From Obrimoposthia wandeli (lineage: Eukaryota), in NCBI GenBank assembly GCA_977020255.1, contig CDROCS010002923.1:62001-126000 (forward strand): a DNA stretch of 64,000 nt. The letters are read 5' to 3'. Below the pieces are notes generated by a model. The model worked only from the letters and a program-made list of their open reading frames with translations, ran no database searches and was not told the DNA's origin. Shown piece after piece: positions 33,231 to 64,000 of this stretch. Both the position numbers and the translations under genes were made by a program. Within the stretch, counting starts at the first letter, position 1. The number at the start of each line of letters is the position of its first letter.

Positions 33231-33244
33231 CTCTACGAACCAAC

Positions 33245-33801
33245 TATTTTGCTTCCGTAATCTCAATCAGCGCAGACAACACTAAAATCAACTGGATTTA
33301 TCTTCATTCGAATATCTGCACTTACACCAGGTAAAAGATACTTTGGTTGCTTAAAGAAATTCAAATGGAGACTCCCACAAAGTGACAATACTTTAGATTT
33401 CGCAATTGAAGCTTTTTTTCTTTCTTTACTATCATCAAACCCAATTGCTTCAAGATTAATCAATTTCGTATCATTATCGTAATTCAGTAATGTTTTAATC
33501 ATTCACATTATTGAGACTGAGAATCACATCCTTGAAAAAAAATATATATTAGCTGATTTGATATCCATACCATTATCCAAATCACCTCCACTTTCCTTTG
33601 TAACTTTCAATTTAAAGAGAAATAAACTATCATTCAAATCAAGATATTGAGTATTTGATCCATTTATAATGAATTATAAATCCAGAAAAGATGTCCCGTT
33701 AACCGTATTTGTTGGAAAAATTTCTTCAAACTAGTCCTATCAACCCCAACCCGAGGTATAGGTTTATCGAATATACACAATTCAGTTTTAGGATAACTCA
33801 T
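33245..33801 (-). pseudogene. Polinton major capsid protein, N-terminal half
   Basis: MSYPKTELCIFDKP...YLDLNDSLFLFKLKV...SLCGSLHLNFFKQPKYLLPG, homologous to 7102-8329. Confidence 0.85.
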
Positions 33802-33899
33802 TACTTCAAAATTGTTCCACCTAGTTTCAAACGTTTGTTTATACTCGATGCTTTAGATATTTTCTTACGTTTATAACCACTTCCCTTTTGAGTTTTCTT

Positions 33900-34163
33900 T
33901 TACCAAAATTCAGCTAGATTTGGAGAAATTTCATTCAACTGATCCAAGGCAGCAATTTTTAGTGTGGGAAGTAATTTCTCATCACCAGATAAGTATTTTG
34001 ATCCAACAATAGCAATAAATTTCCCGAGTCGCTTGAGTAGTGGGAAAGCAAAACAACCAAAAACTTTCATCCATCCAGATCCATACCGTTTTCCCAGCAA
34101 ATAAGGCAAATCACCTTCTTGCATAGGTTTACTATATCCATCGATTATACTTGAATCAATCAT
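33900..34163 (-). CDS. Small Polinton/adintovirus ORF between penton and hexon ('gasderminX'-like, GSG motif)
   Basis: RYGSGWMKVFGCFAFPLLKRLG: a G-x-G site followed by an amphipathic helix, in the expected position. Confidence 0.65.
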   Translation of the reverse strand: MIDSSIIDGYSKPMQEGDLPYLLGKRYGSGWMKVFGCFAFPLLKRLGKFIAIVGSKYLSGDEKLLPTLKIAALDQLNEISPNLAEFW

Positions 34164-35182
34164 AATTTACGAAAATGAACCGTTAAACTTGTTTTAGCTC
34201 CGTAAGCAAATGTAATTAATCTTACAGAATCATTAAATATATTAACTTCAATATTGTTTATAGAAGAAGAACTCACTGGAATATACATGAGATTTTCAAT
34301 TGGAATATGTATAACATCCTCATACTTGTACTTTTCCTGTTGAACCCAAATTGCTTTTATTAATGGAAGTTTAGTTCCTCCTACGAATATTAGTTCAGTA
34401 ATACTCGTGTAAATATAAATGTGATTATATGCATTAGTTATTTTAGGAATAATCTTTGCTTTGAAAACAATATTTTTATTTTCAAAGTCATTTCCATCAA
34501 AACCGATAATTGAGGCTAATGATTTATCTATGACAACTTTAACAATATTTGATTTCAATTTGAAATGAATCAATTTATTAACTAGTTTAAAGTTTTCAAA
34601 TACATTTGGTAACACTGTTTTAAAATGTTTACAAATGCTTTCACTATCTGGAAAAAGAAAATCATTGGGAACTGAATATATTTTCCTATCTTGTTTAGTG
34701 AATTTGTTTTTTATCTTGAATGTAATTATTGGATACTTGATATGTTTATCCATAATTCCCGAAACCACATGCTTTCCTTTATCAGAGTTAGTTGGAAATC
34801 CATATTGTTCTGCAACAATCTCATCATTAAAAACTATTTCAAAATTATCACCTTGTCCTGCAATTTGAATTTGATTCTCTTTATTTAAAAAGATTGTGAA
34901 ATCATATCCTGTATTAATACGAGCCAAATCCATATGACCCATGTCAAATAGTAAAGTCACAACAGTTACTTTATCAGTTTCTCGTTGAGTAATATATTTA
35001 ATCTCAGTTTCACTTTGAATAGATAGAGGAGAGTAATTGAAAGAAAATTCCGTAAAATCAGCTTCCAAAGCTACTGGTAAATTGATTGAGCTTTGATAAT
35101 CAATACTAAAATTATTAGCAGTATTATTCGGTTGAGTTAATGGTGAACCATTACTTAATAATACAACATACATTGAATTCAT
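34160..35182 (-). CDS. Polinton minor capsid protein (penton), open ORF
   Basis: N-term YVVLLSNGS...NTANNF; C-term HIYIYTSITE...LPLIKAI...YIPVSSSSINNIEVNI...SLTVHFRK. Uninterrupted frame. Confidence 0.85.
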   Translation of the reverse strand: MNSMYVVLLSNGSPLTQPNNTANNFSIDYQSSINLPVALEADFTEFSFNYSPLSIQSETEIKYITQRETDKVTVVTLLFDMGHMDLARINTGYDFTIFLNKENQIQIAGQGDNFEIVFNDEIVAEQYGFPTNSDKGKHVVSGIMDKHIKYPIITFKIKNKFTKQDRKIYSVPNDFLFPDSESICKHFKTVLPNVFENFKLVNKLIHFKLKSNIVKVVIDKSLASIIGFDGNDFENKNIVFKAKIIPKITNAYNHIYIYTSITELIFVGGTKLPLIKAIWVQQEKYKYEDVIHIPIENLMYIPVSSSSINNIEVNIFNDSVRLITFAYGAKTSLTVHFRKL

Positions 35183-35998
35183 TCTATTTGAGAAGCTAAT
35201 ATCCAACTAGGTTCAGTATATCCATGCCACTTAACTCGATATTGTTTATGCTTTCCGCTCCCTTTTGTCTCTAAGATTTCCTGAATTATATATACATTTG
35301 GTTTCTCGGGCAAGACTTGTAATTCCTCATGATAAATTTACCAGTGGTTATATTATTGGTTTCATCTTCATTGAAATACATTAACGGTACATGTATATTA
35401 TCAATTTTAGTTATACGAAATACTTCATCACTCCAATTCTCTTTGAAATTCTTTATAAAAGGAGTAGTACTAATTTGAGAAATACATACATAATCACCAA
35501 CTTTATACTTGAGTTTCTTTACAACTTGACTTTGGTTACAACGTTGCCTAATTTCTATAGCATTCTAATCTGTAACACCAACAAGTCTCTTCCCATCTAA
35601 TGAGGAGTGTTCACTATGATTGTATGCATGTATTATTTGAAGTAAAACAGTGACCCAGGACTTATTTTCCTGCTTAGTGAAATACGTTTTCAATCGAACT
35701 CTTAATGGAATAGCTCGTGCAAATTTACTAAAGACATCAACAAAAGTTAAAATATATCGATATCCAGCGGTAATACTCGCATATGGAATCATTTCTATCA
35801 AATCTGCTTGCCATAAATCATTTGGGCCGCTCGTTTTGTATGATCTCGTTGGAAACCGACATCTCATTGGTTTGTTTAAGCTAATTGATTTCTCAACCAC
35901 GCCTGAGTTTCCTTTTTCCTCTTCTTTGTCTCTTTTGATAATTTTGAAACTCCTGTGTAACCAACGGGATGACTTGGATCAAACCATATTTTCTCCAT
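35179..35998 (-). pseudogene. Polinton retroviral-like integrase with C-terminal chromodomain
   Basis: MEKIWFDPSHPVGYTG, LWQADL...YRYILTFVDVFSKFARAIPL, GKF..EELQ and YIIQEILETKG...YRVKWHGYTEPSW. Frameshifts and an internal deletion. Confidence 0.88.
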
Positions 35999-38587
35999 TT
36001 CAACAAGACGATTTGATTTTTATATTGAATTTAGGAATAGATGGATGTGATCCCATATATAAATTCATATTATTGAGGCTATTTCTTAGCATTAGTACTA
36101 TGTTTGAATAATCATAGTTAAAGCGTTTTTCATTTTTAATTAATGCATATTATTTTTATTTCTTTTATTTAAATTAATTTAAAATATAAAGTTGATGTTT
36201 TTTTCTTCCTTTTCTTTTCAGAAAATCAGACATTCTAAAAAATAATTTGAATTATACCTCAATTTTTTCTAATATTTGAAACAAATAGTTCTGAGTATAT
36301 AAAAAGGTTTCACCCGTTTGTTACTAACACATAAGTTAAATATTAACAAAAGCTTGATTCTTCTGTTTAATTTGTTTATTTTAACTTTTTAATTATTATA
36401 AAAATATTGTGCCAGTTAAGACTATTCTAATAATATTTTACAATGTATAGCATATTCTGTTTACACCAGAACACCAGATGGTAAAATTTATTAAAATAAT
36501 AAGTAATTTCTGGATTTTCTTTCTTCCTACGTTTATAATTTTTCATTTTTACAGTTTGGCATAGATATTTGACTTCTGAAATAATTAAAATAAAAGGCAA
36601 AAATTTACTCAAGTTCGATTTCAAAACATATTTAAATTATGTTATTATATTAACTATTCTGTTTTGTTTGGACTTAGTCAGGTTTGCGATAAACATAATA
36701 TACTGTATAAAGAAACTGTTCAAAATAACTACGATTTAATATAATATATATAAAATTAATTGAAGCTATAATAAAAAAATATATGAAATAAAGTACTGGG
36801 AATAATAAATAACCATTATTAATCTATGTATATCTGTTGTTAATAATTAATTCTGTAAACTATATAGCATAAAAATATGGTAATAAATAATTTTCAATAA
36901 ACATAAATAATACTGATTTACGCCAATTTTGCTGATTTTTTTATATAGACTTGAATTAGATTGAGTGAGAAAATTTCAAAAATGATTATACATGTTTTAT
37001 GAGAGAGACTTGTTTTCTGAATAATTACAAAATAATATATTGAATATTTATATAATTATTATAAGGATTATAATCACATAATAATATAATGACATTTAAT
37101 CAAGATATCATTTAGGTTATAATCTAACTAGTTTTAGTAAATATATTTAAATAATACTAAACCCTTTTAAAATGTTTGATCAAAAGTTGAAAGAATTTAT
37201 ACTGTGAGATCTTATAGAAAATGTCTAGTGTAAAAAAAAGCAATGAAAGATTATTACTCAATTATGGTTTAGAAACTTTTGCATTTCATTTGTTGCATCT
37301 CTCGTATTTGAGTGCAGTTACATTTAGATATTAATTTTGAGGAAATAACTGGTAAATCTGATGTAAATTATACAGAAATCTTTGCAAATAACACTCTACT
37401 TAGAATGAAATTTATTATAGAAAAAATTATCAACTCATGAAATAAAATAATTATACTTCCGACAGATTTATTGAATCAAAAATATCACAGAATTTCACAA
37501 ATTACATTTTTTGCACAAAACGAAAATAACAAAAAAAGAAATCACAGATAACTAAATCAGAAAAGTAATGGCCAATCGGTTTGAAGGGAATATTTTATTG
37601 GAAATCTGACTAAAGCCAACCAGTCAGCTTAGACCATTTAAGTCTTCAATGATCTGAAAAATAGTTCTGTTCAATGAGATTTAAACGATATAAATCTTTC
37701 TTAATTTTAGGCGAGGATATAAATAATTCATTTACTCGAAAACTTACTTGATCTATAAATATACTCTGGAGCAATATTTTTAAATAAAATCAACTATTTG
37801 TGAAATAATTCTTAAACTTATTTAATGTATATCGGTCAATATTATAAAATGTTAAAATAAATATATTAAATAATTTCTTTGCTCTTAAATAATGTAATTT
37901 TTAAAAATTATAAACTGTATTTTTTGACAATTTTATATTTGGATTCAATATTGGACTTTAATTAAAGATACGTTAATTGTAATGGATTATTATTGTAGCC
38001 TTAATAGATAATGCTTAATAGATAATAATCGGAAAGAAAAATAGCAAGGAAGCTCAGAAGTGAAGGAAAAAATTGAAAAATTGGTTTGATTAATTAAATT
38101 CAGAATAAGAAGATAAGATTAAGTCATAAATAGATTTGGTCAAAACGCTCTTTTTAGAAAAATAATAATAATTGTGATATAAATTATCGATAGAGAATGT
38201 TCAACGATGTTTAGAGAGATTACAGTTTCAAACAGTAGGAAGAAAAATATAGTATAAAAGAGAGCACAAAGAATTAAGATTAATATTTGTTGTATTTGTT
38301 GCTCATTAATTTTGAATATAATTCTGTCTTATTATCAGATGAAAATTTTCCCGATAATTGGAAGAGTTATGTATATTTTTTAAGAACTGTAGATTTAACA
38401 ATATTTTTATATATTTTCAAGCACAAAATAAGTCAACATTTTTACACTTTCAATCATTCGTTTTACAAGATAAAACTACTCTACAAATGTTGGTTCCCTC
38501 TGAAATCTCCCTTAAAATAACTGGTATTTGAAGTGTAGTTGTATTTGTTAAAGCGTATGTTCAGAAGTACTGGGCATGTAACGTCCT

Positions 38588-47371: not shown

Positions 47372-47606
47372 TCAAAAATTAGAGTAAAACGTATATAAAA
47401 TGCTATCCAATTTAACATTCTTTATATCATCAAATTTGAAAGTAAATAAAAACTTCTTTGCATCAATTTTCTTCTTGTGCAACAAACGGCTTGAGGATGG
47501 CAATGTTCTTCTTAACTGTAAATGACCAATTTTCCATATCACCTTCCACCGAAGAATCCTCAAATTTACGATCAACTAGTCTTTTGGCATCAAAACCCGT
47601 ATTATT
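47372..47606 (-). repeat. Inverted partial copy of the gag-like ORF start at ~48872-49105, fused to a 28S fragment
   Basis: Direct sequence match (ctaataatacgggttttgatgcc...). The junction has ATGAA(C/T)C microhomology. Confidence 0.85.
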
Positions 47607-48141
47607 AGGTTTGGTTCATCCCACATCGCCAGTTCTGCTTACCAAAAATGGCCCACTAGGCATTCGTATTAAATCGTGCGTCTTCAATGAAGAAAGCCAC
47701 GCATCGTACCCATTTAAAGTTTGAGAATAAGTTGCATCCCCATGACTTCTAATCATTTGCTTTACCAGATACAACTACGCTCAAAATGCCAGCTATCCTG
47801 AGGGAAACTTCAGAGGGAACCAGCTACTAGATGGTTCGATTAGTCTTTTGCCCCTTAATGCATGTATGACGATCGATTTGCACGTCAGAACCGTTTCGGT
47901 CCTCAATCAGAGTTTCCTCTGACTTCAACCTGCACACATTAAGGTCACCATCTTTCGGGTCTCTACCCGATTGCTCTAACTCTGCTCAAATGCGAACAAT
48001 TACGAACAGGTTGATACTGGACCTGATGGATTTGCGACCAGGGTCGTATCTCAGTTCACATTAAACGAACCTTTACTTTCATTACGCCATGGGGTGTCGT
48101 AGGGCCCTTTGACTCGCAATCAAATAAAACTCCTTGTCCGT
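47606..48141 (-). pseudogene. Dispersed 28S rRNA fragment (~535 bp)
   Basis: Antisense conserved LSU blocks: GCCAGTTCTGCTTACCAAAAATGGCCCACT, CCAGCTATCCTGAGGGAAACTTC, GGAACCAGCTACTAGATGGTTCGATTAGTC, TCACCATCTTTCGGGTC, ACTCCTTG-TCCGTGT. It carries substitutions and has no flanking rDNA. Confidence 0.92.
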
Positions 48142-48515
48142 GTATAAAGTATATAAAATGAATATATTCAATTGACTAAAAGCCAGTGATCACTATCTAT
48201 CGAAAATGTCGAATTTAATTGTGTTTTGTTGCTTCATATTTTTGCCGAATTTTATTTGGTGATTAATTGTTTGTTAAGAAATAAAATTATCTGATTTGTT
48301 TTTTTGTCACAAATTGTAAAACATTTGTAAAAATTTCCTAATGCTTAAATTTTAACTTTTAAATATGGAAAATTTGAGTGCACTACCTAGAATTTTAATA
48401 TACAAAAGACTAGTCCTGCCAGTGATCTAAATTTAGTGATATTTTGGAAATGTAATCAATATGTAAGATAAAACTATCGTTTAATTAATTTTATATTTAG
48501 TTTTTATTTCATATA

Positions 48516-48650
48516 CACACATGTATATTACACAAATGTATATTATCCACATGTATATTACACACATGTATATTACACAGATGTATATTTCACACATGTA
48601 TATTACACACATGTATATTACACACATGTAGATTATACATATGTAGATTA
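48516..48650. repeat. 15-bp minisatellite (ATGTATATTACACAC) x9
   Basis: Nine consecutive units counted directly. Confidence 0.95.
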
Positions 48651-48721
48651 GTTGTAAATAACATTTGTTTTTAGGCAATATGAATAAAAGTGCAGCTTAA
48701 GTCTATAGTTTTTATTATGTA

Positions 48722-48822
48722 GTTTGAATGTTTTAAAAGTATCGATTTCAATAAAGTTTTCGTTAGGTCTTATGCTATGTTTTATGATTTTAATTATTAT
48801 GATCAAAACTGGTAGCAGAGCG
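48722..48822 (+). mobile_element. LTR 3' end plus initiator-Met primer binding site
   Basis: 48722-48796 matches 59788-59862. TGGTAGCAGAGCG at 48810-48822 is complementary to the tRNA-iMet 3' end (CTCTGCTACCA). Confidence 0.7.
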
Positions 48823-48864
48823 AAATGAAAGAGGGATCGGAGATGCTGCTGAAGATCAAGTTGC

Positions 48865-49448
48865 AATGAATCCTAATAATACGGGTTTTGATGCCAAAAA
48901 ACTAGTTGATCGTAAATTTGAGTATTCTTCGGTGCAAGGTGATTTGGAAAATTGGTCATTTACAGTTAAGAAGAACATTGCCATCCTCAAGCCGTTTGTT
49001 GCACAAGAAGAAAATTGATGCAAAGGAGTTTTTATTTAATTTCGAATTTGATGATATAAAGAATGTTAAATTGAATAGCATCATCGGGAATTCTCATAAA
49101 CATATCGATATCACCGAGTCACTGAAAAGGTTTTTTGGTAAGGTACAATTTTTATATGCTTTATATGAAGTTAAATTTGAGGATAAGAAGAAAGCTATGC
49201 GCTTCTTCCAGATGAAGACAGCGGATGTTGATGTTACGAAAGTCAATTTCAATTTTGTTTATGAGCGAAATATTTTAAATAAGATTGTTGAAAAGAAGAA
49301 TGCTTCTAATGATGATAAGGAATATGTTAAAGATTCGGCTGAGGATGAAGATGTGAAAATGGAGGTTGAAGTCAAAGAGACTCAAGTACTAAATAATGTT
49401 GAAGTTTCGGATGCTTCTGAAGTTTCTGAAGTTCCTATATTTAACTGA
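48865..49448 (+). pseudogene. Gag-like ORF remnant following the PBS
   Basis: ATG at ~48865 ([12 protein letters not shown]...GDLENWSF) frameshifts into ORF 48906-49448. Assigned by position only. Confidence 0.4.
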
Positions 49449-50152
49449 AATGAACTTACGAAAAGATGATTCACCCAAATTTACCATGTATCTCAGGAAT
49501 TTTCACCCTAAAGCCGTTGTATTTGAAATGACCTTAAATTTAATAAATTTAATTCATGTGAATTTACCTAAAAATGAAAGTGGAAAACCGAAAATTCGAG
49601 AGGAAGCTACGAAGAAAGAAACTACGGCTCGGGAGAAGATCAAAACTACCGATTACGCTTTGATGAACAATTTAATGAGAATGCAAGATGGATCCAGCAG
49701 ACAATCGGATACATATTATTGTCATGCGCCAAATATTATGGGTGGACAAGTCACTGCTGGAGGTTGTGTTTTTGCTCCTATTTTTATTGCCGGGACCCAC
49801 ATCGTCAAGTTTCAAAATTAATTGTAGAGTTTTCAAAGTTAAAGTAATATAAATATTAGAAAATATTAACGCTGTAAGTCCCTATTATGTCTCGGGTTGA
49901 TGAGGAGCGGCTATACTGTAAACGTATCCCAAAAATAGTATGTAAGCCTGTAAATCATGATGAAGGTGATAAGTTTATAAAACATATAGATAATTTTGGA
50001 CTTGATGAGTTGTCAGATTTAATAAAACGGTTTTACAAAAATTCTCCCACAAAGAATAATGCACTATCAGAGCTGTTCCAGACTAATATAGGTTTTGGTT
50101 CGAGAACAAAGGCATATTTAATACCTGAAGGGATTATCAAGGGATTATTTTG

Positions 50153-50832
50153 ACAGAAAATGTTGAGGGAAAAACTTACTCAGAGATTTTACTAAATTCG
50201 ACATCGATTATAAAGGATTTAATGAGACTTTTGACTCACTCCTTGACGATTCATATGTGGAGAATTTCAGTGGATGGCAGGCACGATCCGAGAAACCACT
50301 TCAGCCGACATTGGCGGAGGCCCATAAACGAAGTTTGACAGAGGGATGCTTCGCAATGCCGGTTGAGGATGGGGACAGCGTGCATCCAGACGCAAGGATC
50401 GTGACCGTGGCCTCAGGAAAAGATGGCTATAACTTTTCAAGAAAAGCGGCAATGTCGATGACAGATGACCGTCGAAAGAATGACAGATACGATAGCCAGC
50501 GATGTCGATGTTCGGATGCAGAAAAAAACAACAATAGAAATCAGACGCGTTTATGAAGATGAAGAAGTGGAAGAATTATCATGGAGTTCAAAAAACAGAA
50601 AATGTTGAGGGAAAAACTTACTCAGAGATTTTACTAAATTCGACATCGATTATAAAGGATTTAATGAGACTTTTGACTCACTCCTTGACGATTCATATGT
50701 GGAGAATTTCAGTGGATGGCAGGCACGATCCGAGAAACCACTTCAGCCGACATTGGCGGAGGCCCATAAACGAAGTTTGACGGAGGGATGCTTCGCAATG
50801 CCGGTTGAGGATGGGGACAGCGTGCATCCAGA
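50153..50832. repeat. 238-bp direct duplication (50153-50390 and 50595-50832)
   Basis: Near-identical copies separated by ~200 bp. Confidence 0.9.
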
Positions 50833-51133
50833 TAATGACATTTAGCTAGTTTCAGAGGAGACATTAATGATATGATAATGGAGTATATGATATTTATAAG
50901 GTTCTGAAGGCAAAATAATGATATATTCAGGAAATTAATGATATGGAAGAAATGATATAATATTTAGTGATATTTGTGAGCATTGCTTGGAATATGGATG
51001 ATATTTAACTAGATGCTTCTAGAAGAGAAATTGATGATACGTATATGGTTAAGAAAGAGAGAGAGAAAGTTCGCGTTCAGTGGTGGTGATGTGATTGGAA
51101 ATCATGGGGCGATTTGCGGAGGTAGTGATGCAG

Positions 51134-51300
51134 AGTAGGGAGATGTGATGACTTCAACTCAAGGCAATAGCTCCCTCCTGAAGTAGGTCAAATTTCTCCC
51201 GAGAAGACCTGTTGGAAGTCAATTTCTCCCGAGTAGACATGATATTTTCATGTAAAGGTCATTTGAAGGTCATTATTTTGTTTAAACGCATCAAAGTCAT
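51134..51300 (+). mobile_element. Third AGTAGG-type Polinton terminus
   Basis: AGTAGGGAGATGTG followed by AGGTCA-rich sequence, as at 29129. Confidence 0.55.
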
Positions 51301-54189
51301 TTTTGTTTTTAACGCATCAATATTTGTGCGTGCCAAATTCAAATTTTCCCAAAATTATTTTTGGCGGATTTTCAAAATATTTTTTGAAAAAATGATTTTT
51401 GTTTAAATTTTTAATAAAATTTAAAAAAAACATAAAATTTCGAAAAACTTAAAATTTCAAAAAACTTAAAATTTCAAAAAACTTTTAATTTTCAAAAAAC
51501 ATTAAATTAAAAAAACTTAAAAAATTTAAAATATTGATATTTGCATTTACAACTGTGTTTTATAATATTATCCAAAGGAAACGTATCCTTTTCATAATCC
51601 TTTATCCTTCATCTCATCAATGCAATCCTTTATCGTAATCCTTCATATTGTTTTCATCATAATATGACATCTAATCTTCACTATCGCTATCCTTCATCCT
51701 CATCTCACCATTATCGCAATCTCTCTTCTTTCATCTCATCATCTTCATTATCGCAATCCGTCATCCTTCATCGCAATCATTCACCATGTCTTCATTATCG
51801 CTATCCTTCATCTTATCAATGTAATCCTTCACAAACTAGATGTTCATGTCATTTATGATATTTAAATGATTCTAAAAGAATAAGCATAGTCTTAGAAGAA
51901 AATTATGAGATGTTCAGGAAATAATTGATGTTTTACGAGGAATATTACTAGTATATAATGTATTGAAACCTTTCAAAAGAGAAAACATATCGACTTAAAA
52001 TGGGTTTACAGGGGGATTTATCAGGGGTGTTGGTTTCAGAATATAAAATATAACATGTGAAAGGGTTCAGAGGGTGATTTAAGATTTTTCAGAAGAGAAA
52101 ATTAGTAGGTTTTAGAAGCAAATTTAGATATTAACAACTTAGAAGGATTTTAGAAGAGAAAATGACGTAGAATACAAATTGATGGTTCAGGGGTGATATT
52201 ACCCAGATGGCTATAGAAGATAAATTTATGATATTTAGGTGGTTGAGAAGCAATTTCTGGAAATTATTTAATATAGATATGAAAAGAAATTAACAATGAA
52301 ATTGGGGTATGTAGGTGATTAAGAAGAGAAAATATAGAAAGAGTACTCAGAAAGAGAATTAACGGGTGAGTCCATAGATTTCAGAAGATAATTTATAGTC
52401 TTAACAGGGGGTTAAGATGGGATTTACCCAGATGGTTCTAAAAGAGAGAATTAGGGGTTTCAGAAGCAAATTTAAGCATTGATATTAACAATTTAGCAAG
52501 AGTTTAGAAGAGAAAATGATATAGAAGACAAATTCACGGTTCGGAGGAGATATTTAACTAGATGCTTCTAGAAGAGAAATTGATGATACGTATATGGTTA
52601 AGAAGTAAATTCAGGAAATGTATGATATTTAGAAAATATGGGTAATAGAAATTAACAAGGTGTTCAGGAAATTTATGATATTTAGGTTTAAGCATAGATG
52701 ATTAGCTAATTTTCTTCTACTTAATCTCCCTCAACCACCACGAAATTATCATATTCTTAATCCCCATATTATTCTTCCCTTCTTAGAGGAGAAATTATGA
52801 GATTTGTGTTATTCTAAGATGACATTACTCAAATACCTATCTTTATCGGTATTTCTATCATAAAGATGGGATACATGATTCGAATCAATAATTTAGCTGT
52901 AACACCCTTTGACATAATTCCACTATTAAGTCGCAGTAATTTAGGTAAAGATAATCAGAGTATGTTTCGGTTACAGTATTATCAGTTAGGGTAATTTTGA
53001 AATATCATTTCCACATACTTGATAATTGATTTATAGTATAACTCTGAAATTGATCCAAGACCGTTGAAGTATCAGTTATATCTAAATATTATGTCATTAT
53101 TTGATAATTTTTATATAAATGCATTCCTGCTGAAGCCAATAAGTTATATCTAATGTCTGCTAAATAATGAGTCTCTGAAATTGATGAGTTAGAAATTATT
53201 ACGAATTATAGGAAAATGGTGCTAAAAAAACTGGTGCTAAAGTGAATTATAAATAGACTTATATCAATATATGAGAGAAAGTTATTTATGATATTTAGAA
53301 GAGACATTAATGATATGTTCAGAAAATTTTTGATATCTAATCTGGCCCTAAAATGATTTATTGATAGGTTTATATCGATATTTGATAGAAAGTTGTGATA
53401 TTTGGATGCTTCTAGAGGATAAATTAATGATATATTCAGGAAATTAATGACATTTAGCTAGTTTCAGAGGAGACATTAATGATATGATAATGGAGTTTAT
53501 GATATTTATAAGGTTCTGAAGGCAAAATAATGATATATTCGGGAAATTAATGATATGGAAGAAATTATATAATATTTAGTGATATTTGTGAGCATTGCTT
53601 GAAATATTTCAATTGATTAGAGAAATTTAGGGAACAACATACATTGATGGAGTGTGTATTTGATTCAGTTTAATAGTCTTAATGAAAATGTAACCCATAT
53701 GATGATATCAGTGAATGTTCTCCAATCAATAAATTACAGAAAAATGGATCAATATGGTGGTGAAAGTATAAGTCTCTTTATATTGATTTATTGGATGTAC
53801 CCGCAGATGAGTTTACAACAAGAATACCACCGATGACTGAACCTCTCAATTTCTCATCCAAGTAAGATATTATCATAGGATTGCCCGCGCTTTCATGTCA
53901 TTGCAGTTAAAAGCATGATCTACTATGGAATTGTCCCTGGGATGCTACTTGAAGAAGGTATTCGCAGAGGAAGGACATTTATCGACTAACGTTATTATTA
54001 ATTCTGAGGGTGATTCTATTTTGATAACCCCAATTTTCACCAGTTGGAGATTTACCCAGATCAATTAGATGGATGTAGATGAAAGTATTCCGAATGAATT
54101 ACTTGACAATCTTGACAATCTTAGAAAATAATATTTGAAGACTTTATTATGCAAAGAAGATTGCTTTCATCATTTTGTTTACAATAGGT

Positions 54190-54790
54190 TACAGAAGAGA
54201 AATTAGTGATATTTAGGTATTTCTATATGAAACATTAATGGTATATCTAGGAAATTTACCATATTTAAGCGGTTCTAGAAGAGAAATTAATGATATTTTC
54301 AGGAAATCTATGATATTCTGATGGTTCTATAAGAGAAAGTAATGATATGTTTAGAAAATCTATGATATATAAGTGTTTCTATAATATAAATGTATGTTAT
54401 CTTCAGTAAATCTACGGTATTTAAATGATTCTATAATAGAAATTAATGATATGTTCGGGAAATCTATGATATTTAGGTGTTTCTAGAGGAGAAATTATTG
54501 ATATGTTCAGGAAATCTATGATATTCTGATGGTTCTAGAAGAGAAATCTATGATATGATCAGGAAGTCTATGATATTTAAGTGTTTCTATAATAGAAATG
54601 TATGTTATCTTCGGGAAATGATGGTTCTATAAGATAAATTATTGATATGTTCAGAAAATCTTTCATATTCTGATGGTTCTAGAAGATAAATATATGATAT
54701 CTTCGGAAAATCAATGATATTTAAGTGATACTAGAAAGGAAATTAATGATATGTTCATTCACTTTGATATATTTAGAAGGTTCTAGGGGG
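54190..54790. repeat. Degenerate AT-rich minisatellite (ATGATAT...TTCTAGAAGAGAAAT / TTCAGGAAATCT units)
   Basis: Recurrent ~20-30-bp modules. Related copies are scattered over 50830-53600, including a 50834-50990 / 53447-53601 duplication. Confidence 0.75.
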
Positions 54791-56596
54791 ATCCCATTTG
54801 ACCTTTAACTCATTATCCAAAGAAATGCCACCGGGTTGCTTCGGATATAGGTCAGATTTCATGCATAAAAGATAGCCCCGCATAAAGGGGAACTAAGGAT
54901 TTTGATTATTATAAGTCTTTTTAGATGATTAGAGGATAATCTCATGGTAGTTAGGGAAATCTCGTGAAAGTTGAGAGGTTTAAGAGGAAAAAATATAACA
55001 AGTATTAGATATTAGATATTAAATATAACAAGTATTTAACGAAAGAATAGCATAGAATCAATGAAATCAGACCAATATCAAGCATACCTCTTTCATCAAA
55101 GCAGACATAATGATGGATGTTTTTAAATAACAGACATCATTTAGCATTACTTATACATCAATTTTGATTGGTTGAAATATTCTACGTTACAGTCATTTAA
55201 AATATTCTACGTTGAAGTTGTTTAACTATAAACATTTTGTTGTAAAAACTAAGATATTAAGACTTATAATATTTGAGTTAGATGATTAGGTTAGAGTGGA
55301 AAAGGAAAATATTGGACATTTTATAAGAATGAATCTAATAATCAATAAATTGAGATATATCTATCCATTACTAACATGTCTATCGTTTCATGAATCTTCT
55401 TTCAAAAACTTTCAACCCTAACTTTCAGAAAAATCACCAAATACCATAAATTCATATATTTCCATAGATAAATATTGATTATTGAAAAACTGAAATTATA
55501 AATATTATTATTATAAACATCTAGTCTCCCTATCATCAACCAGCATACGGTGGCTGATAATAGGAATAATGATTTTTCTAATATGTCAATGAGATTTAGA
55601 GTATAAAGTGGAGTAATGTAGCTAATTATGGAGAAGACTTAGATGTTTTGAAGTTAAATTGATTATTATACAAGCCCACATGCAATTCCTTATAACAAAT
55701 GCATATACCAATAATACATATATTTCATCTATATCATAACACATGTTGTAAATCCCTATAAAACCTAATGCACATAATTCATCATATGTATTGTATTGAT
55801 TAATCTATTCTATCAAGTAGCTATTGATTATTTAATCTAGGGAATATGTTTAATATTTCTAAGATAGCATAGTTTCTCATTATTTTTTCAATATCGTTTC
55901 ATAAATCATTTGATTCAATAAATATCAATATTTCTATCAATATAACCTTAACTTTCGGACTTCTTATTAAATATTAATAAATAAAAAGGTAGAAAATAAA
56001 GATACGTACCTTTATTTGTTAATTCCATAGATTTCAATCAGGAGTCACTAATCCGCTGGGTCCAATCTTGTATATTCCATTGTAATCCAGTTGAGTAGAA
56101 ATATAGTTTTGATCCATTGATATTTCGGAAAAATAGCATTATAATATTGAATTTGGGTTCTTGTAGGTAATAAAATTGATTTTGGCAAGTATTTGATCGA
56201 TTCTTTAATAATATCAGAAATAAAGTAAGCGAATTTTCCCATCGATATATAAAATTGTAATAGGCTTCTGGAGAAAATGCATATCTATGAAAAATACTTG
56301 GACGTTGCTATAAATCAGCTTGCATGTTTATTTAAATATCTATTCGTTTATATAAAACTGAGACTCAGATTAACCAATAAGAATATATGTTTGCAATGTT
56401 ACTAAAATTAGATTATTTTTATAGTAACTCTATAAGAAATTAGAAAAGAAGAGAGAAATTACGCGATGGTTAAGATGTTTAAGGAAAATAGGGTTGGTGG
56501 AATTCTGGAAAAGAAGAAGCCGTAGCAACTATCCAAGGCAAGTTAAATTATAACGATTATAAAGTATTTCAGGAAACACGACACGGAATAGTAAAT

Positions 56597-59460
56597 GTGG
56601 AAGGGAGGTATGAAGTAAGTTTACCGTGGAAATATGAGAGCGCTAATGTTAGATGGGATTGTGAAATAGCTAACCAGCGGCATATGAGCTTGGAGAGACG
56701 GTTAGACAAAGACACTCAGTTGAAATCGGAGTACACGGCAGTCATGGATAGCCATCTACAGAAACGTTATATCAGAAAGGTAGAGAAAGTTGAAGTAAAG
56801 TTGATTAAGTGTTTGTTGCTGCATTTCCCGATCGCCAAGCGGAAAAAGGAAACAACTGAAGTTCACATAGTGTTCGATGCAGCTGCGGAAGTGCCAGGCA
56901 CAAGTTTGAATGATTTAATTCATTGTGGTCCGAACCTGCAAGGAGATCTAGAAACGATCTTGTTAAGGTTAAGAAAATATACTGTAGCATTAGTTTGTGA
57001 TATATCGGAGATGTATCTCCAAGTAAAGGGGGCAGAGAAAGATAAAGCGTGGTTGAGGTTTCTATGGAAGGGGCGTGGAAAAGTGCAAATGTATGAATTT
57101 AATCGGGTAGTATTTGGAATAAAGGCGTCACCCTTCTTGGCACAGTTAGTAACTCGAATAAGCACGGATAAGTTGAGTATGCTACAGAGCCATCGATACG
57201 ATACTAAAATCCACATACATGGATGATAGTTTGAATTATGTTCCGTCCGTTGAGGAGGCGATACAGATACAACAAGATCTGCTGCGGGTGTGGGACGGCA
57301 CGGGAATGAGTGCCAAAAATGGGTAAGCAACAATGACAGAGTCAATCAACAAATCGCCACAGCAGACCACGCAAAAGTATTAAAAATCGCGGATGGCGAA
57401 ACAATGCAAAGCATAAATACTTTGGGAGTAGCGTGAAACGCACAAGAAGACGTCTTCAGAATGACGACGAGTTTAGAAACGTTGAAGACAATCACTAAGA
57501 GGACATTCCTAAGTCTTCTGTCAAAAGTATTTGACTCATTAGGTTTTGCGAGTCCGATAATAATAAAGGCAAAGATTATTATGCAAGAGCTATGGCTGTC
57601 AGGTTTGGACTGTGATAAGAAAGTCGAAGGAAGTATTAGTGAGAAGATAATTCACTGGGTGGAAGATGTAAAGTTGTTAAATAAAGTTAAAGTTCCCAGA
57701 TGGATACTTGCTAAAAAATGTAGTAAGAGTTCGTTACACATTTTTGTAGACGCTTCTGAGCAAGTTTATGGAGCAGTAGGTTACTAGTATAAATCAGTGG
57801 AGGCACGTACCCACAAAATTAAATCCAGCGGACATATTTTCAAGAGGAGCCGATGTTCAGTGAATGAGCCAAGAAATGTTATGGTGGGAAGGTCCCGAGT
57901 TTTTATTAGGTCAAGAGATGGGGTGGCCAAAACAACTAACACAAGAAGTGATGTCAACAGAAGTAAAAAAGAAGCAAAAAGTGATAGTGACACATGTTAC
58001 GCAGAGAATCGATGGGTGCAATATAAGTAAGTATTCGACACTCGCAAGGTTACAAAGATGCATGGCGTGGGTAAAATGTTTCACAATTAACACACGGTTA
58101 GATCGAGATAATATATTATTGAAAGAACTGGAGATCACAGAAATTCAAACTGCAACAAAGCGGTTTTTAAAAGCTGAGCAACAAAGAAGATATTATCATG
58201 AAGATTATAAAAGACTAGAACAACAAAGGTCGCTAGAGAATAGCAGTGGTCTAATTAAATTGAATCCATGGATCGATCCAGATGGAATGATACACTCAAA
58301 CACAGAAATTATCCATGCACAATTTTTGGATTATCAGGCCAAGTATCCTATAATCTTCCCATACAAAAGTTGGGTCACAAGATTGATCCTAGAGGCGCAA
58401 CACAGAAAGTTGCATCATTATGCCGGCGTGTAGCATGTGTTGTGTGAGTTAAACAAGCAATATTGGATTCCAAAAGCGAGAAGATTAATATGAAATGTGG
58501 AATTCAAATGTATGACATGCCGAAAGAGTAAAGCGAGTGGAATGTCAGCTGCAATGGCTCTATTACCATATTTTCGTTTTGAAGAACCCCTCAGAGCATT
58601 CGGGAACGTAGGAATTGATTACGCAGGACAATTTTAACGAAGCAAGGCCGTGGAAACGTCAGAATGAAACGGTACTTGTGTTTACTAACCTGCTTACAGA
58701 CACGCGCATGATTTGACAATAGATTGGGTGATCAAGGCGTTAAAACGTTTATTGGAAGACGAAGAAGACTAAGCATGTTATTATCAGATAACGGGTGAAA
58801 TTGTGTTGGAGCAGTAGCAGAGGTTAAAAACTTTATGAAAAATACGTACAGTATTAAGTAAAAACTAAAAAAGGAGGAAATACGATGGGTGTTCAACCCA
58901 CCTTATACGCCGCACTTTGGAGGAGTGTTTGAAATTATGGTGAAGTGGGCAAGAAGGGCTATATTTAAGTTACTACAGAAGGCGACCATCAGTGACGAAG
59001 ACTTAACGACAATATTTATCGAAGCCGAAGCACTGTTAAACTCACGGCCGTTTTGAATAAAAAGTATGGATCCGAAAGAGAGCGAGGTGTTAACACCAAA
59101 TCATTTTTTGATAGGAGAAGTGCACATAGAAACGGGTTTAGAAGAAGAACAGTTTGGTGTGCAACAGCGTTGGAGATTGGTACAAAGGTTGACGACAGAG
59201 CTATGGAAGTGATAGTGGAGGAAATTGTGCCAATGTGGGCACCTCAACAACGATGGAATCAGAAACGTTCGCCATTTAAAGATGGGGATAGAGTCTGGGT
59301 AGTTGATAAGTAAAATGAGAGAGGGCAGTGGAAGTTGGGAATATATATAGAAGTGAATCCAGGAACAGATAAAAAGGTGAGAGTCGCAACGGTGAAGATT
59401 GGGTCCAAGATAGAAGTAAAGTCGCTGGGACTCCTTTGTAAACTGGGATGTGAGGCGTCG
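56597..59460 (+). pseudogene. BEL/Pao LTR retrotransposon pol (RT, RNase H/peptidase A17 domain, integrase)
   Basis: HIVFDAA..SLND...GPNL, CDISEMYLQV, LRFLW, VFGIKASPFLA, YMDD, LHIFVDASEQVYGAV, GIDYAG and [14 protein letters not shown]. Many stops and frameshifts. Confidence 0.93.
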
Positions 59461-59867: not shown

Positions 59868-62334
59868 TGTTGGGGTTTCTATACGAAACTTGGTATAGAG
59901 CCTCTTGAATGCGGAGGGCCCCAACGTGAGTTCGATTAGAAGCAGGTCTTAAAGTTGGTCGTGGCCTACTTAGTGTTATGGTTGCCTAATCTCTTGTACT
60001 ATCTGAAGGTATTTGATTTGGTGTCTCTTATTCTGAAGGGTGCAAAAACAACTTGTTCTAATGTAGGAAATTGTTTATTTGTAATTCACGAACTAAAACA
60101 CAACAATACGTTTATGTACGTATTTTCTAAAAAGTATAGTAAAATTCCTAAGACTTCTGTAAGTCTCTACAACAAGTGGGGATGAACCACGTATCGATTT
60201 TATGTTAAGGGTGATCGAGTTTTTTAGAGTCGTTCCTCTAACTCGCGAATAAGCTCAAGTTAAGATTTTCAAATTAATATGACTCTTATGTCAAACTCTA
60301 ACTTTAATTCCCAATTTTAACTTTACTGGCAAACTTTTATCTTTATACCAAACTATGGCAATTTAGACAAAACTTCTCTTCAAACTTTTATGGCAATTTT
60401 TAGACAAAAAACTTCTCTTCAAACTTTTATGCAATTTAGACAATTTCAACAAATTGCAATGTCAAACTCTATGACAATTTTAGGATAAACTTTATCAATT
60501 TAGTTTATAATCAAAAATCAATGTAATTCAAAATGTGATGTCAATTTTATGACAATTTACTAGAATAAATAATTCAAAATGTGATGTCAACTTTATGACA
60601 ATTTTCTAGGATAAACTTTATCAATTTAGTTTACAATCAAAAATCACTGTAATTCAAAATGCGATGTCAACTTTATGACAATTTTCTAGGATAATTAATT
60701 CAAAATGTGATGTCAACGTTATGACAATTTTCTAGGATGAACTTTATCAATTTAGTTTACAATCAAAAAATCAATGTAATTCAAAATGCGATGTCAACTT
60801 TATGACAATTTTCTAGGATAAATAATTCAAAATGTGATGTCAACTTTATGACAATTTTCTAGGGTAAACTTTATCAATTTAGGTTACAATCAAAATCAAT
60901 GTAATTCAAAATGCGATGTCAACTTTATGACAATTTTCTAGAATAAACTTTATCAATTTAGTTTACAATCAAAAATCAATGTAATTTAAAATGCGATGTC
61001 AACTTTGTGACAATTTTCTAGGATAAACTTTATCAATTTAGTTTACAATCAAAAATCAATGTAATTTAAAATGCGATGTCAACTTTGTGACAGTTTTCTA
61101 GGATAAACTTTATCAATTTAGTTTACAATCAAAAATCAATGTAATTTAAAATGCGATGTCAACTTTGTGACAGTTTTCTAGGATAAACTTTATCAATTTA
61201 GTTTACAATCAAAAATCAATGTAATTTAAAATGCGATGTCAACTTTGTGACAGTTTTCTAGGATAAACTTTATCAATTTAGTTTACAATCAAAAATCAAT
61301 GTAATTTAAAATGCGATGTCAACTTTGTGACAGTTTTCTAGGATAAACTTTATCAATTTAGTTTACAATCAAAAATCAATGTAATTTAAAATGCGATGTC
61401 AACTTTATGACAATTTTCTAAGATTATGACAATTTTCTAAGATAATGAAGTAAAACTTGAGACAATTTTTAACAATCTCTCTTACGTTTCTCTTTATCTC
61501 GAGGCGATTTCCAAGTCCTGTGTGGTGTCCGTGATGATTTCCAATCTGGTCGCTGCTAGGGAAAATGTTGGCTCCTTTTAGGCTTGAGAATTTACAACGT
61601 TAGGATATTGCACGATTGCTGGAGAAGTCAGGAATGCGACTTTAATTGATGAATGTAGGAGTCGGTGATATCGGCAATAGTAGCTCTGACGATTTCTTCT
61701 TTCGTTCTGATTAATAGGTTGGTGATAACTGGAGAGGATAACTTTTGCTTCGAACGGAGGACTAAAATCTAAATTAATCTTAAGTCTACTGTCGACTACT
61801 ACTTACCAATTCGTGGCGATGTATGTCTGTCGGAGATATTGATTCCCTTCTTCTAGTCTACTAGTTTCCTGGATTGGCGATCCGCCTTATATAGTTGCTT
61901 TGTTGAAATATTGATTTTTTCCGGTTGAGTTGTTTTGGCAATTGACTATGGCAATTTAGTCAGAGATTCACGGGGATTCTTCTGCTCAGGACAATTGAAA
62001 CAACAGCTGCTAGCTGAAAGTAATTAAAGTTTATTGCACGTAAATGTGCTTACCTCTTGATTGACGTTTTTCTTTCTGCTGACGTTAGCAGATTCTAAAT
62101 TCTTTTGCTTAGTTAATTTGTTGCCCGTTTGGGTTAATTAATTTAACTTTTATACACATTTCACACTATACACGACCTTCGTGGTCCTCCTAATTTTTAC
62201 CCTAAATTCCACTAATTTTAATTCTAAAACTAAAATTAATATTTTAATTTAATTTTCAACCTTGCTTTCAAGGATTTTTATTTTAGTATTTAATCGACTA
62301 AAATATTTAAATTTCTTAATTCTCAAACCTAACA
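59868..62334 (-). repeat. Unclassified dispersed element, copy 2, carrying the 80-bp satellite
   Basis: TGTTGGGG...CCTAACA ends. Colinear with 26566-27885. Confidence 0.55.
60459..61440. repeat. Tandem array of 80-bp units mixed with ~42-bp half units
   Basis: Line starts recur every 240 nt (3x80) at 61021/61261. Each unit contains TGTCA-N6-TGACA. Confidence 0.95.
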
Positions 62335-62636
62335 TACCTCGGGGGTTCAAAAAATGTTACGTCCCCGGAACGTATCGATTTTACTTAAATAAGCCTCTGG
62401 CTGTTGATTTTAGGTTCATCCCTACAAAATCAATCATTCAACTTCAACAAACATGCCCAAAACAAAATTTCTCAAAATCCCGGTTTTTTAGTGGGAAACA
62501 TAATGTATAATTTGGAACAAGTCTCAGACTATACATTATTACTTATACACAACTAAAATTTACACACAAAAATATTGAGGGTGAGGAATATGTCACAAGA
62601 TTGTCTGGGATATGTCACAAGAATGTCTGGAATATG

Positions 62637-63140
62637 TCAACCGTTCCTGTCCTTCAGGAACAGCAAGACCTGCTCCAGTGGTAGTTCCGGATACGATGGT
62701 GGGCCGCCATTGTATAGTAACATTTGCTGGCGCATGGTGAGGTGTTGACTCGGGTGGAAAATGGTAGTATATCGCCCGTGTATTCCGCGATTTCCGAGCC
62801 ATATTTGACGGCCACGCTGCCATGAGCGGGGGTCGCGAGTTGATCGGTATTTCTCGCGGAGGGCGAGTTTTGCATCGCGACGGCGCGCGATACAGTCGGG
62901 GCAATGGCAGTGCTCGCCACCAATACAGCTGGTGAGCGAATGGGTGGCCTTGTGGCGCCCTCGACACTGTAGTGTCCATTCCGCGAAGGGAGTACGGCAA
63001 AAGGGGCAATTGACATGTCCTTCGGGTCGAAGTCGGGCCCAAGTATATAGGCAGGATTCGTGGAATTTGTGACGGCAGCCGACAGGGGATGCTGATGCCG
63101 CCCAAATTTTCTCCATGCATACAGCGCACTTCATCTGCAT
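62637..63140 (-). CDS. Intronless RING-H2 protein 1
   Basis: CAVC...CRHKFHESC...CPFCR (C3H2C3), followed by CIGGEHCHCPDC. GC-rich. Confidence 0.8.
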   Translation of the reverse strand: MQMKCAVCMEKIWAASASPVGCRHKFHESCLYTWARLRPEGHVNCPFCRTPFAEWTLQCRGRHKATHSLTSCIGGEHCHCPDCIARRRDAKLALREKYRSTRDPRSWQRGRQIWLGNRGIHGRYTTIFHPSQHLTMRQQMLLYNGGPPSYPELPLEQVLLFLKDRNG

Positions 63141-63475
63141 AAGAAAATAACTCCTTTCAATTTGGGTTCACCGTTCTCATCGTTAATTTAAATTTTATTT
63201 CAAAACGAATCCTTAGTTATCTAATCCTACCGAGTTTTGTTTCGATTTTAGGCATGTTTACGCATTCACACTAAGCATTAAAAAATTGTCTTTTTTAGAA
63301 ATTCAGTATAATAATTACACTTTCAGTTAAACATCATACATAAAAATGGTAATGGTCAATTTACAGTTCACAAGATTATATAATTATGATTACAATTATG
63401 GTAGCTAATTTATCGCGGTATGCGATACACAGGGTAGTTCATGATGTCACGTTCAAGTCAGAAAGTTACCTTCGA

Positions 63476-63781
63476 TTATTGTTGGGGATTGGGCTGGCCT
63501 GTGCTTCGCTCCTCCACGCAGAACGAGCACCAGCAATCGCAGATGGTTTTCCAGCAGTGTACGATGGGTACCACTGCTTGGAGGCTGTCCTGGTTGTACA
63601 CGTAGTGTACTGAGAAGGTCGCTCTGCACATCGGGCAGGTTGGGAAGTCGAGGGGATTGTTGCTGTTGGCGATGGGAATCCACGTCTCGAGGCATTCGAT
63701 GTGGAAGAGGTGGTCGCAGTTGTTGGGCTTGGTGTAGAGGTCCACGATGCTCTCGTAGCAGATGGAACATTCTCCAGACAT
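63476..63781 (-). CDS. Intronless RING-H2 protein 2
   Basis: CSIC...CDHLFHIEC...CPMCR, followed by CWKTICDCWCSFC. Confidence 0.82.
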   Translation of the reverse strand: MSGECSICYESIVDLYTKPNNCDHLFHIECLETWIPIANSNNPLDFPTCPMCRATFSVHYVYNQDSLQAVVPIVHCWKTICDCWCSFCVEERSTGQPNPQQ

Positions 63782-63841
63782 TACTGTGGGAGGGTTGATG
63801 TTGAATTTGGGCTCGATTGAGGACTGGTGGTTGTGTGATGT

Positions 63842-64000
63842 TTACACAAAAGTGGTCTGATTTTGTCGATCTGACAAACAGTAATAACACCAACACTCTC
63901 CGAAATTCTTCCAACAGAATACCACCTGTACATATACATCCTCTTGGTTGGGTTCTAACATGATGAACCTTGCGAATTGTCTTCTGCATACAGGGCAACA
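63842..64000 (-). CDS. RING-type protein 3, cut by the window edge (not in ORF track)
   Basis: Reading from 64000: CCPVCRRQFARFIMLEPNQEDVYVQVVFCWKNFGECWCYYCLSDRQNQTTFV*. Same layout as protein 2. Confidence 0.7.
   Translation of the reverse strand, partial: CCPVCRRQFARFIMLEPNQEDVYVQVVFCWKNFGECWCYYCLSDRQNQTTFV

Follow-up and report, generated by a model that had tools for sequence, protein, structure and literature searches.

A giant env-bearing Gypsy LTR retrotransposon with three predicted RING-H2 ligase genes at its 3′ end

Three RING-H2 ORFs and their shared Cys4 motif

The stretch of DNA analyzed here (64,000 nucleotides; hereafter 'the window') ends in a group of three compact open reading frames (ORFs), all on the minus strand (Table 1). 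A preliminary description had reported three co-oriented RING ORFs carrying a second cysteine motif, and these are indeed present; the ORF interrupted by the window edge encodes a full C3H2C3 RING once the contig is followed past that point. Each ORF exceeds the Pfam zf-RING_2 cut-off of 27.3 bits (33.5, 36.0 and 37.5 bits). An alignment of 20 natural copies, chosen for their open frames, reveals the C3H2C3 ligands, the E2-contact Trp and Pro residues and the linchpin Arg in every member. The roles of these residues in RING-H2 ligases are well established. Invariant in all 20 are the eight RING ligands, P19, L31, W34, P50, R53, F56 and the four cysteines of the second motif (Cys4).

Table 1. 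Positions of the accessory genes, their putative acceptors and the 3′ flank (window numbering, except where a contig stretch is named).
Feature	Position	Strand	Description
ORF3, first RING gene after the polyprotein stop (window part)	63842..64000	-	C-terminal 52 of 99 aa; Cys4 CWKNFGECWCYYC at 63878-63916
ORF3, complete gene	contig stretch L021:5842-6141; start 141 nt past window edge	-	99 aa, full C3H2C3 RING
ORF2	63476..63781	-	101 aa, RING-H2 + beta-hairpin + Cys4 CWKTICDCWCSFC at 63518-63556; Pfam PF13639 E 8e-9
Predicted 3′ splice/trans-splice acceptor of ORF2	63784..63800	-	pyrimidine-rich tract + CAG, 2 nt before ATG
ORF1	62637..63134	-	165 aa, RING-H2 + Cys4 CIGGEHCHCPDC at 62892-62927 + ~80 aa tail; Pfam PF13639 E 5e-8
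Predicted acceptor of ORF1	63135..63150	-	pyrimidine tract + CAG immediately before ATG at 63134
3′ untranslated stretch before LTR	62336..62636	-	22-bp tandem repeat at 62585-62639
3′ LTR	59868..62334	-	2467 bp, TG...CA; 80/126-bp tandem array at 60459-61424; then TSD ATAC

The Cys4 motif begins 23 residues past the last RING cysteine in all three ORFs, within the spacing of about 20 to 25 amino acids reported initially, and takes the form C-x5-C-x-C-x2-C in ORF1 and C-x6-C-x-C-x2-C in ORF2 and ORF3. The paralogues are only 27-36% identical in pairwise comparisons, which bears out the remark that they are highly diverged yet open. ORF1 lies in an open frame spanning 62637-63140, with its likely start codon at 63134, and its tail yields no Pfam match. 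In 11 of 27 tails, representing an ORF1 subtype found at L002:629-1156 and in similar copies, the protein ends in TITIDLTY; the ORF1 of the window stops before this sequence. The tail resembles a SUMO-interacting motif, and its combination with a RING would suggest a SUMO-targeted ligase.

The GC content is 0.56 for ORF1, 0.55 for ORF2 and 0.40 for the window part of ORF3, relative to 0.31 for the whole window. The spacer between ORF1 and ORF2 is likewise at 0.31, and therefore the 'GC-rich island' noted earlier consists of the ORFs themselves and does not include the spacer. At third codon positions the difference is larger still, with values of 0.58 (ORF1) and 0.78 (ORF2) versus 0.37 for the adjacent polyprotein. 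The high GC and GC3 point to a foreign origin, and they favor a reading, weighed below, of the ORFs as RING fragments captured from a host or a virus.

AlphaFold2 models of ORF2 and ORF3 (mean pLDDT 78 and 79) contain a confident RING, a beta-hairpin at approximately residues 58-72 and a final helix, and the Cys4 loop is modeled with low confidence (pLDDT 57-66). In the viral structure library they come closest to baculovirus IE2, PE38 and CG30 and to herpes ICP0, with E-values of 6.5e-5 to 1e-3 over 74-103 columns (for ICP0 Q59I51, TMq 0.64 and rmsd 2.8 over 82 columns). If these models are accurate, ORF2 and ORF3 would share with ICP0, IE2 and PE38 a RING followed by a beta-hairpin. The viral proteins are DNA-virus ligases that are far longer and mostly of the C3HC4 type, and none showed a Cys4 motif, whereas the element encodes RING-H2 proteins of 99-176 aa in a retroelement.

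Foldseek returned no PDB match at E<=0.001, the top entry being 3vk6 (E 0.08, rmsd 12.3), which we take to be Hakai. VIA-align rows are generic RINGs aligned over residues 1-69 (best Z 7.3) that barely cover the Cys4 segment, with RNF125 (5dka) among them at Z 5.7, and matches from the PDB sequence search are to RING cores and extend no further than profile position 70. The post-RING parts gave only TNFR_nem in Pfam (E 0.07), and PHROGs gave no match. In the ESM Atlas, the closest clusters consist of small RING proteins from Nucleocytoviricota and Preplasmiviricota (0.90-0.94), and the value with the Cys4 part is 0.79, which is below the meaningful range. Viral contigs match the RING core alone (residues 4-57). 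A search for homologous proteins of near length found none for ORF2 and, with the alignment as query, one generic RING. The top profile matches include a tandem-RING protein from a tapeworm.

CxCxxC follows none of the 245 RINGs in the 151 best outside proteins (the best 150 of 5,835 matches in a 1.84-billion search, plus the one from the homologue search). Multi-RING proteins dominate the ranking of these 5,835 matches, and therefore a distant Cys4 relative could rank lower. The Cys4 motif, which the preliminary description could not assign, thus appears to be without a family match in Pfam, PHROGs, the ESM Atlas, viral contigs and the structure searches made, although it is not proven to be new.

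The carrier is a giant Gypsy LTR retrotransposon

The three ORFs are 3′ accessory genes of an env-bearing Gypsy LTR retrotransposon of ~24-27 kb, with an internal region of ~19.5 kb (three copies). From 5′ to 3′ the element is arranged as gag, mononegavirus-like env, protease, BIR, RING, protease, RT, RNase H, integrase, two phosphatase domains, stop, ORF3, ORF2, ORF1 and 3′ LTR. Pfam scans of separate natural frames recover, in order, zf-CCHC, a Monjiviricetes fusion glycoprotein, an aspartyl protease, BIR, a C3HC4 RING, a second protease, RVT_1, RNase H, rve and two DSPc domains. The PR-RT-RH-IN domain order is that of Gypsy/Ty3 elements, and paired TG...CA LTRs, a PBS-like site and target site duplications (TSDs) are present. 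The env domain (PF24664) lies upstream of the protease, and in some copies frames of more than 4000 codons are open through env. The BIR match is strong (PF00653, E 2e-11) and the ubiquitin-family matches are weak (E 0.03 and 0.11). BCL2-like, MATH, ankyrin, Smc and dUTPase domains gave no Pfam match in the element pieces scanned.

In the two copies compared, 123 nt separate the polyprotein stop from ORF3, and the polyprotein terminus carries a predicted membrane span and a PPPP run. In the window copy the polyprotein is broken into several frames, owing to decay or assembly error. Two aspartyl-protease domains flank the BIR and C3HC4 RING (L025:2-2152, L027:8607-9998 and other copies), and the two DSPc domains follow the integrase. 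The BIR-RING segment between the proteases would constitute an IAP-like unit, which excision could release as a separate protein.

At the 3′ LTR junction we saw no canonical polypurine tract. Contig C754, which we take to represent the same locus as the window because a 9.3-kb flank is common to both at 94%, carries a 5′ LTR preceded by ATAC, a PBS-like site and an element of 24.5 kb in total. Two further copies measure ~26.7 and 23.9 kb, with TSDs CTAT/CTAT (C572) and TGTG/TATG (C1509, one mismatch), such that the TSD is exact in two of three copies (ATAC for window/C754 and CTAT for C572). The PBS-like sequence starts ~8 nt past the 5′ LTR (L029:2085-2105) and resembles the 3′ end of elongator tRNA-Met.

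The preliminary description had favored an endogenous viral or Polinton-borne E3 array or a host defence family, and had suggested looking beyond position 64000 for viral core genes or TIRs. The idea of a mobile, viral-type array survives, but its carrier is an env-bearing Gypsy element with LTRs, 4-bp TSDs and RT/RH/IN, and the extended contig holds Gypsy pol and an LTR on the two sides of the ORFs, in place of the TIRs and the pPolB, INT, ATPase and capsid genes that would mark a Polinton. Polinton cargo is rejected on the same grounds, and the one Polinton-like remnant in the window is ~27 kb away, outside the LTR boundary. It is extremely unlikely that the ORFs form an E3 array of a Polinton or large dsDNA virus or belong to an ordinary host RING family. 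The ESM Atlas clusters mentioned above and the tapeworm tandem-RING protein speak for such sources, and either could be the distant donor of the RING. However, LTR boundaries with TSDs enclose the genes, the similarity to viral contigs is confined to the RING core and no RING in the 151 best outside matches is followed by CxCxxC, and this reading is already refuted as regards the present carrier.

In architecture, on which the assignment rests, the element matches the Burro type; no named Burro sequence was among the matches recovered. Burro/GYPSM1 elements, giant members of the Gypsy LTR retrotransposons, occur in planarians (Grohme 2018 and Jurka 2007, both after the account in PMC6431247). 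Like the present element, Burro is described as exceeding 20 kb, with one huge gag-env-pol polyprotein, a CCHC Gag, a mononegavirus-like env between gag and protease, a BIR, a weak ubiquitin-like match, tandem repeats, high copy number and an AT-rich animal host genome (PMC6431247). Also reported there are an accessory ORF located upstream and several further domains, namely AIR1 (where the RING remark concerns the Gag knuckle region), Smc, MATH, ankyrin, BCL2, SUMO-like and dUTPase (PMC6431247); scans of pieces of our element found no MATH, ankyrin or dUTPase domain. The present element is smaller, since the Schmidtea mediterranea Burro is given as >30 kb and the Burro internal region as up to 25 kb (PMC6431247). 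It also has a 3′ RING-H2 gene array, a Cys4 module, a second protease and predicted acceptor-led expression, none of which is listed in the Burro section of that review (PMC6431247, section 7).

Copies, recombination and selection

A search of the 1.35-Gb genome produced 22,085 candidates for ORF2 and 18,574 for ORF1. For each, 150 were scored, and all of these matched at 96-100% amino acid identity; 150 is therefore a lower bound of the copy number. The genome-wide count called for at the outset thus stands at no fewer than 150 near-identical copies of the cluster. The 5′ and 3′ LTRs of individual copies differ by 0-6 substitutions per 570-870 nt, and such near-identity indicates that the insertions are recent. 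Among 29 copies (30 loci picked by neighboring DNA, window locus included, minus the C754 allele), RING and Cys4 lie in one frame in 26 for ORF3, 22 for ORF2 and 20 for ORF1.

An outside query, a tapeworm RING protein, brought up older subfamilies at ~75-85% DNA identity in which gene order and motifs are kept. In the 30 loci fetched in this way, 27 of 43 RINGs bear Cys4, and all 27 sit in element-matching loci, which gives no support to the proposal of a host defence family; five of six fetched flanks contain LTR ends.

Only the first ~200 and last ~370 nt of the LTRs are common among copies, with unrelated tandem arrays exchanged between them (window 59868-62334; L023, L026, L035, L149-L154). 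ORF1 subtypes differ at dS up to ~1, while ORF2 and ORF3 remain 97-100% identical. The swapped LTR interiors, together with divergent ORF1 genes beside uniform ORF2 and ORF3, therefore suggest frequent recombination at the 3′ end. A strict association between ORF1 type and LTR type was looked for and not found.

Substitution patterns indicate that ORF1 and ORF2 are under purifying selection, the Cys4 segment included (dN/dS of about 0.05-0.3). For ORF2, comparison with eight older copies gives 0.15-0.26 over the RING and 0.06-0.23 past it; for ORF1, seven older copies give 0.13-0.32 and 0.05-0.23, respectively. These pairwise values all include the branch to the window copy and hence are non-independent, and Fisher tests were applied to one pair each (ORF2, p 3e-6; ORF1, p 8e-7). 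ORF1 subtypes differ from the window copy by dS 0.47-0.99 and dN 0.04-0.29 (90 codons; two frameshifted copies left out). In the sample picked by neighboring DNA, shared synonymous and non-synonymous changes number 5 and 3 for ORF2 (p 0.009) and 1 and 3 for ORF3 (p 0.57), and the synonymous excess of ORF2 in loci picked by protein similarity is biased.

The RING of ORF3 is constrained more weakly than those of ORF1 and ORF2 (dN/dS 0.30-0.61). Past the RING, comparison of ORF3 with older copies gives 12-19 non-synonymous and 0.5-4 synonymous differences (dN/dS 1.1-6.8; not significant, p 0.19, one pair), and, the retained cysteines apart, no purifying selection is seen there. These cysteines persist in most copies.

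The possibility that the ORFs are functionless hitch-hikers, fragments captured from a host or virus and carried along in a young element, can be judged against these values. Frameshifts in many copies agree with it, as does the base composition noted above. Against it stand dN/dS values far below 1 at dS up to ~1, as well as the retention of order, starts and metal ligands across subfamilies. We regard this reading as very unlikely overall, and as largely refuted for ORF1 and ORF2.

A frame of 225 codons that overlaps both ORF3 and ORF2 (L021:5453-6130, minus strand; window 63453-64000 and beyond) was considered and rejected as a gene. It is open in 35 of 47 young copies, with pS similar to pN and no Pfam match.

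Putative splice acceptors and a proposed function

Because the ORFs follow the polyprotein stop, the genomic RNA probably cannot express them, and they would need 5′ ends of their own. The sequences at their starts, TTTAG-A-ATG (ORF3), CACAG-TA-ATG (ORF2) and TGCAG-ATG (ORF1), each place a YAG 0-2 nt before the ATG, with 8-9 pyrimidines in the preceding 12 nt. This arrangement suggests expression by cis- or SL trans-splicing at predicted acceptors. YAG precedes every start that was found (28/28 copies for ORF3, 29/29 for ORF2 and 27/27 for ORF1). In another sample it precedes 26 of 27 ORF1 starts, and the YAG of ORF2 is kept in eight of eight older copies. As background, YAG precedes 65 of 652 internal ATGs, and YAG with a pyrimidine tract precedes 12 of the 652, in a comparison whose acceptor rule was set after seeing the sites and whose background stretches are partly homologous. 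The ORF1 acceptor provides the best evidence for the predicted splice sites, as its TGCAG is kept in seven of seven divergent copies even though most of the upstream 45 nt differs. The whole 45 nt upstream of ORF2 and of ORF3 is conserved, and therefore the YAG is not singled out there; promoters or other signals may possibly lie before these two genes.

No conserved splice donor was found among the three LTR types compared. A TATA (61893) and a GTAAGT donor (61806) in the window LTR were rejected as support, as the arrangement is not retained in the two other LTR types compared and chance alone would yield 0.31 such hexamers per kb. Four sequencing runs of unknown kind cover all 30 bins, and of their 64 joints the 15 listed include none with splice-type ends at the acceptors, a result that weighs neither way. 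The intergenic gaps are 60-340 nt, and in this respect resemble those of flatworm operons, which are resolved by SL trans-splicing (PMC8629364). The Gypsy element Cer1 likewise is described as producing a spliced, SL1-trans-spliced mRNA (PMC3315495). Complex retroviruses and Cer1 thus share with our element short ORFs downstream of the main polyprotein, here predicted to be spliced. Unlike in those systems, the three genes are paralogous, are predicted RING ligases and each have a predicted acceptor at the start.

Expression might instead proceed without splicing, by internal promoters, by termination-reinitiation or by read-through of a stop to give a tandem-RING protein, although we judge this to be decidedly unlikely. 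The strong conservation upstream of ORF3 and ORF2 would fit such a route. Reinitiation could exploit the overlap of the ORF2 ATG with the TAA of another frame in young copies, but this TAATG is lost in six of eight older copies (CAATG or AAATG). As for read-through, ORF3 and ORF2 are in the same frame, a TAA and 60 nt apart, in all 23 copies with a 99-aa ORF3, and one of 28 copies is open across as 221 aa; however, when the spacer is read in the RING frame, synonymous differences (0-2) are not in excess over non-synonymous ones (2-5). The ORF3/ORF2 junction has no unusual RNA fold (z 0.11), and the conservation of the ORF1 acceptor by itself also argues against the unspliced routes.

It seems probable to us that the ORFs are element-encoded ubiquitin E3 ligases, made from spliced or trans-spliced RNAs, that tag host proteins which would otherwise restrict the element or kill the host cell. 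The genes sit between the polyprotein stop and the 3′ LTR and are copied with the element, and their order persists through subfamilies at 75-85% DNA identity. Expression would begin with splicing onto the YAG near each ATG, either from an upstream donor in cis or by SL trans-splicing as in flatworm operons, which would bring the ATG to the 5′ end. Each RING would then bind two Zn, and its conserved Ile/Val, Trp, Pro and linchpin Arg would serve to recruit E2~Ub. The Cys4 motif may bind a third Zn at the end of the beta-hairpin, where it could prop the RING or form a surface for a substrate or partner, and the three diverged paralogues might provide three substrate specificities. Targets could be host proteins of restriction, silencing or death pathways, and the ligases would complement the BIR-RING (IAP-like), ubiquitin-like and phosphatase domains of the polyprotein.

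Second predicted or known Zn modules shortly past the RING also occur in RNF125 and RNF114 (C2HC) and in Hakai (HYB). The Cys4 of the ORFs differs from these in its C-x5/6-C-x-C-x2-C pattern without His, and shows no sequence or structure match over the Cys4 itself. In RNF125, the Zn finger adjoining the RING is required for E2 binding (PMC4944129), which makes this protein the closest working analogy for the Cys4 module.

A more specific version of this proposal takes the cluster to be an operon-like three-RING cassette with a new Zn-binding module, SL trans-spliced into separate mRNAs, whose products degrade host silencing factors of the piRNA/SUMO pathway. The SUMO-interaction-like TIDLT at the end of one ORF1 subtype speaks for such targets. 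The cassette would then be a retrotransposon counterpart of ICP0, a virus-encoded ligase that acts against host defences (PMC5972323). In this detailed form we consider the proposal quite unlikely.

The ORFs could also be genuine E3 genes that serve the element's own cycle, ubiquitinating Gag or the polyprotein for turnover, budding or uncoating. Ubiquitin acts in retroviral budding, and the element encodes an env-like fusion protein and a polyprotein that ends in a membrane span and PPPP, all of which would suit this role; selection acts at the level of the replicating element under either reading. Nevertheless, the low similarity of the three paralogues and the exchange of ORF1 subtypes that differ in their tails suggest that the substrates are several or that they change, and the folds matched best belong to DNA-virus ligases that counter host defence. 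We hold a role in the element's own cycle to be unlikely, and favor host proteins as the substrates.

Burro elements and the apoptosis- and ubiquitin-related domains of their polyproteins were known already, and a review proposes, without test, that they interfere with host apoptosis and ubiquitination (PMC6431247). In the literature searched, no 3′ RING array is described for Burro or other LTR elements; the original Grohme 2018 report and the Repbase GYPSM1 entry lie outside that search and may mention one. How animal transposons counter host silencing is largely open, and the present element offers three candidate ligases that are very small, under selection, encoded on their own and readily expressed and assayed. 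It also offers a specific splice prediction and a Cys4 module still to be classified. In planarians, Burro1 loses its silencing upon PIWI knockdown (PMC8532177), and if the host is a tractable planarian, questions of expression and targets become directly testable.

Several other features were observed in the window, which contains no tRNA genes. A decayed pol of another LTR element, presumably BEL/Pao-like by its motifs, occupies 56597-59313 (plus strand; RVT_1, E 8e-6) and ends ~550 nt from the insertion site. The decayed Polinton-like remnant lies at 30650-36000 (minus strand) and includes DNA_pol_B_2 pieces (E 0.002), an integrase-like piece and a 348-aa ORF at 34160-35206 that has no Pfam match and looks like a minor capsid gene. 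An intronless gene for a 291-aa Na/K-ATPase beta subunit is located at 23102-23977 (plus strand; Pfam E 7e-39), with no match at E<=1e-10 in the protein collection searched. A pair of 213-bp inverted repeats (96% identical) surrounds a 15-bp tandem array at 47400-49081 and is probably a MITE, and a region of 52-bp satellite extends over 50100-54800.
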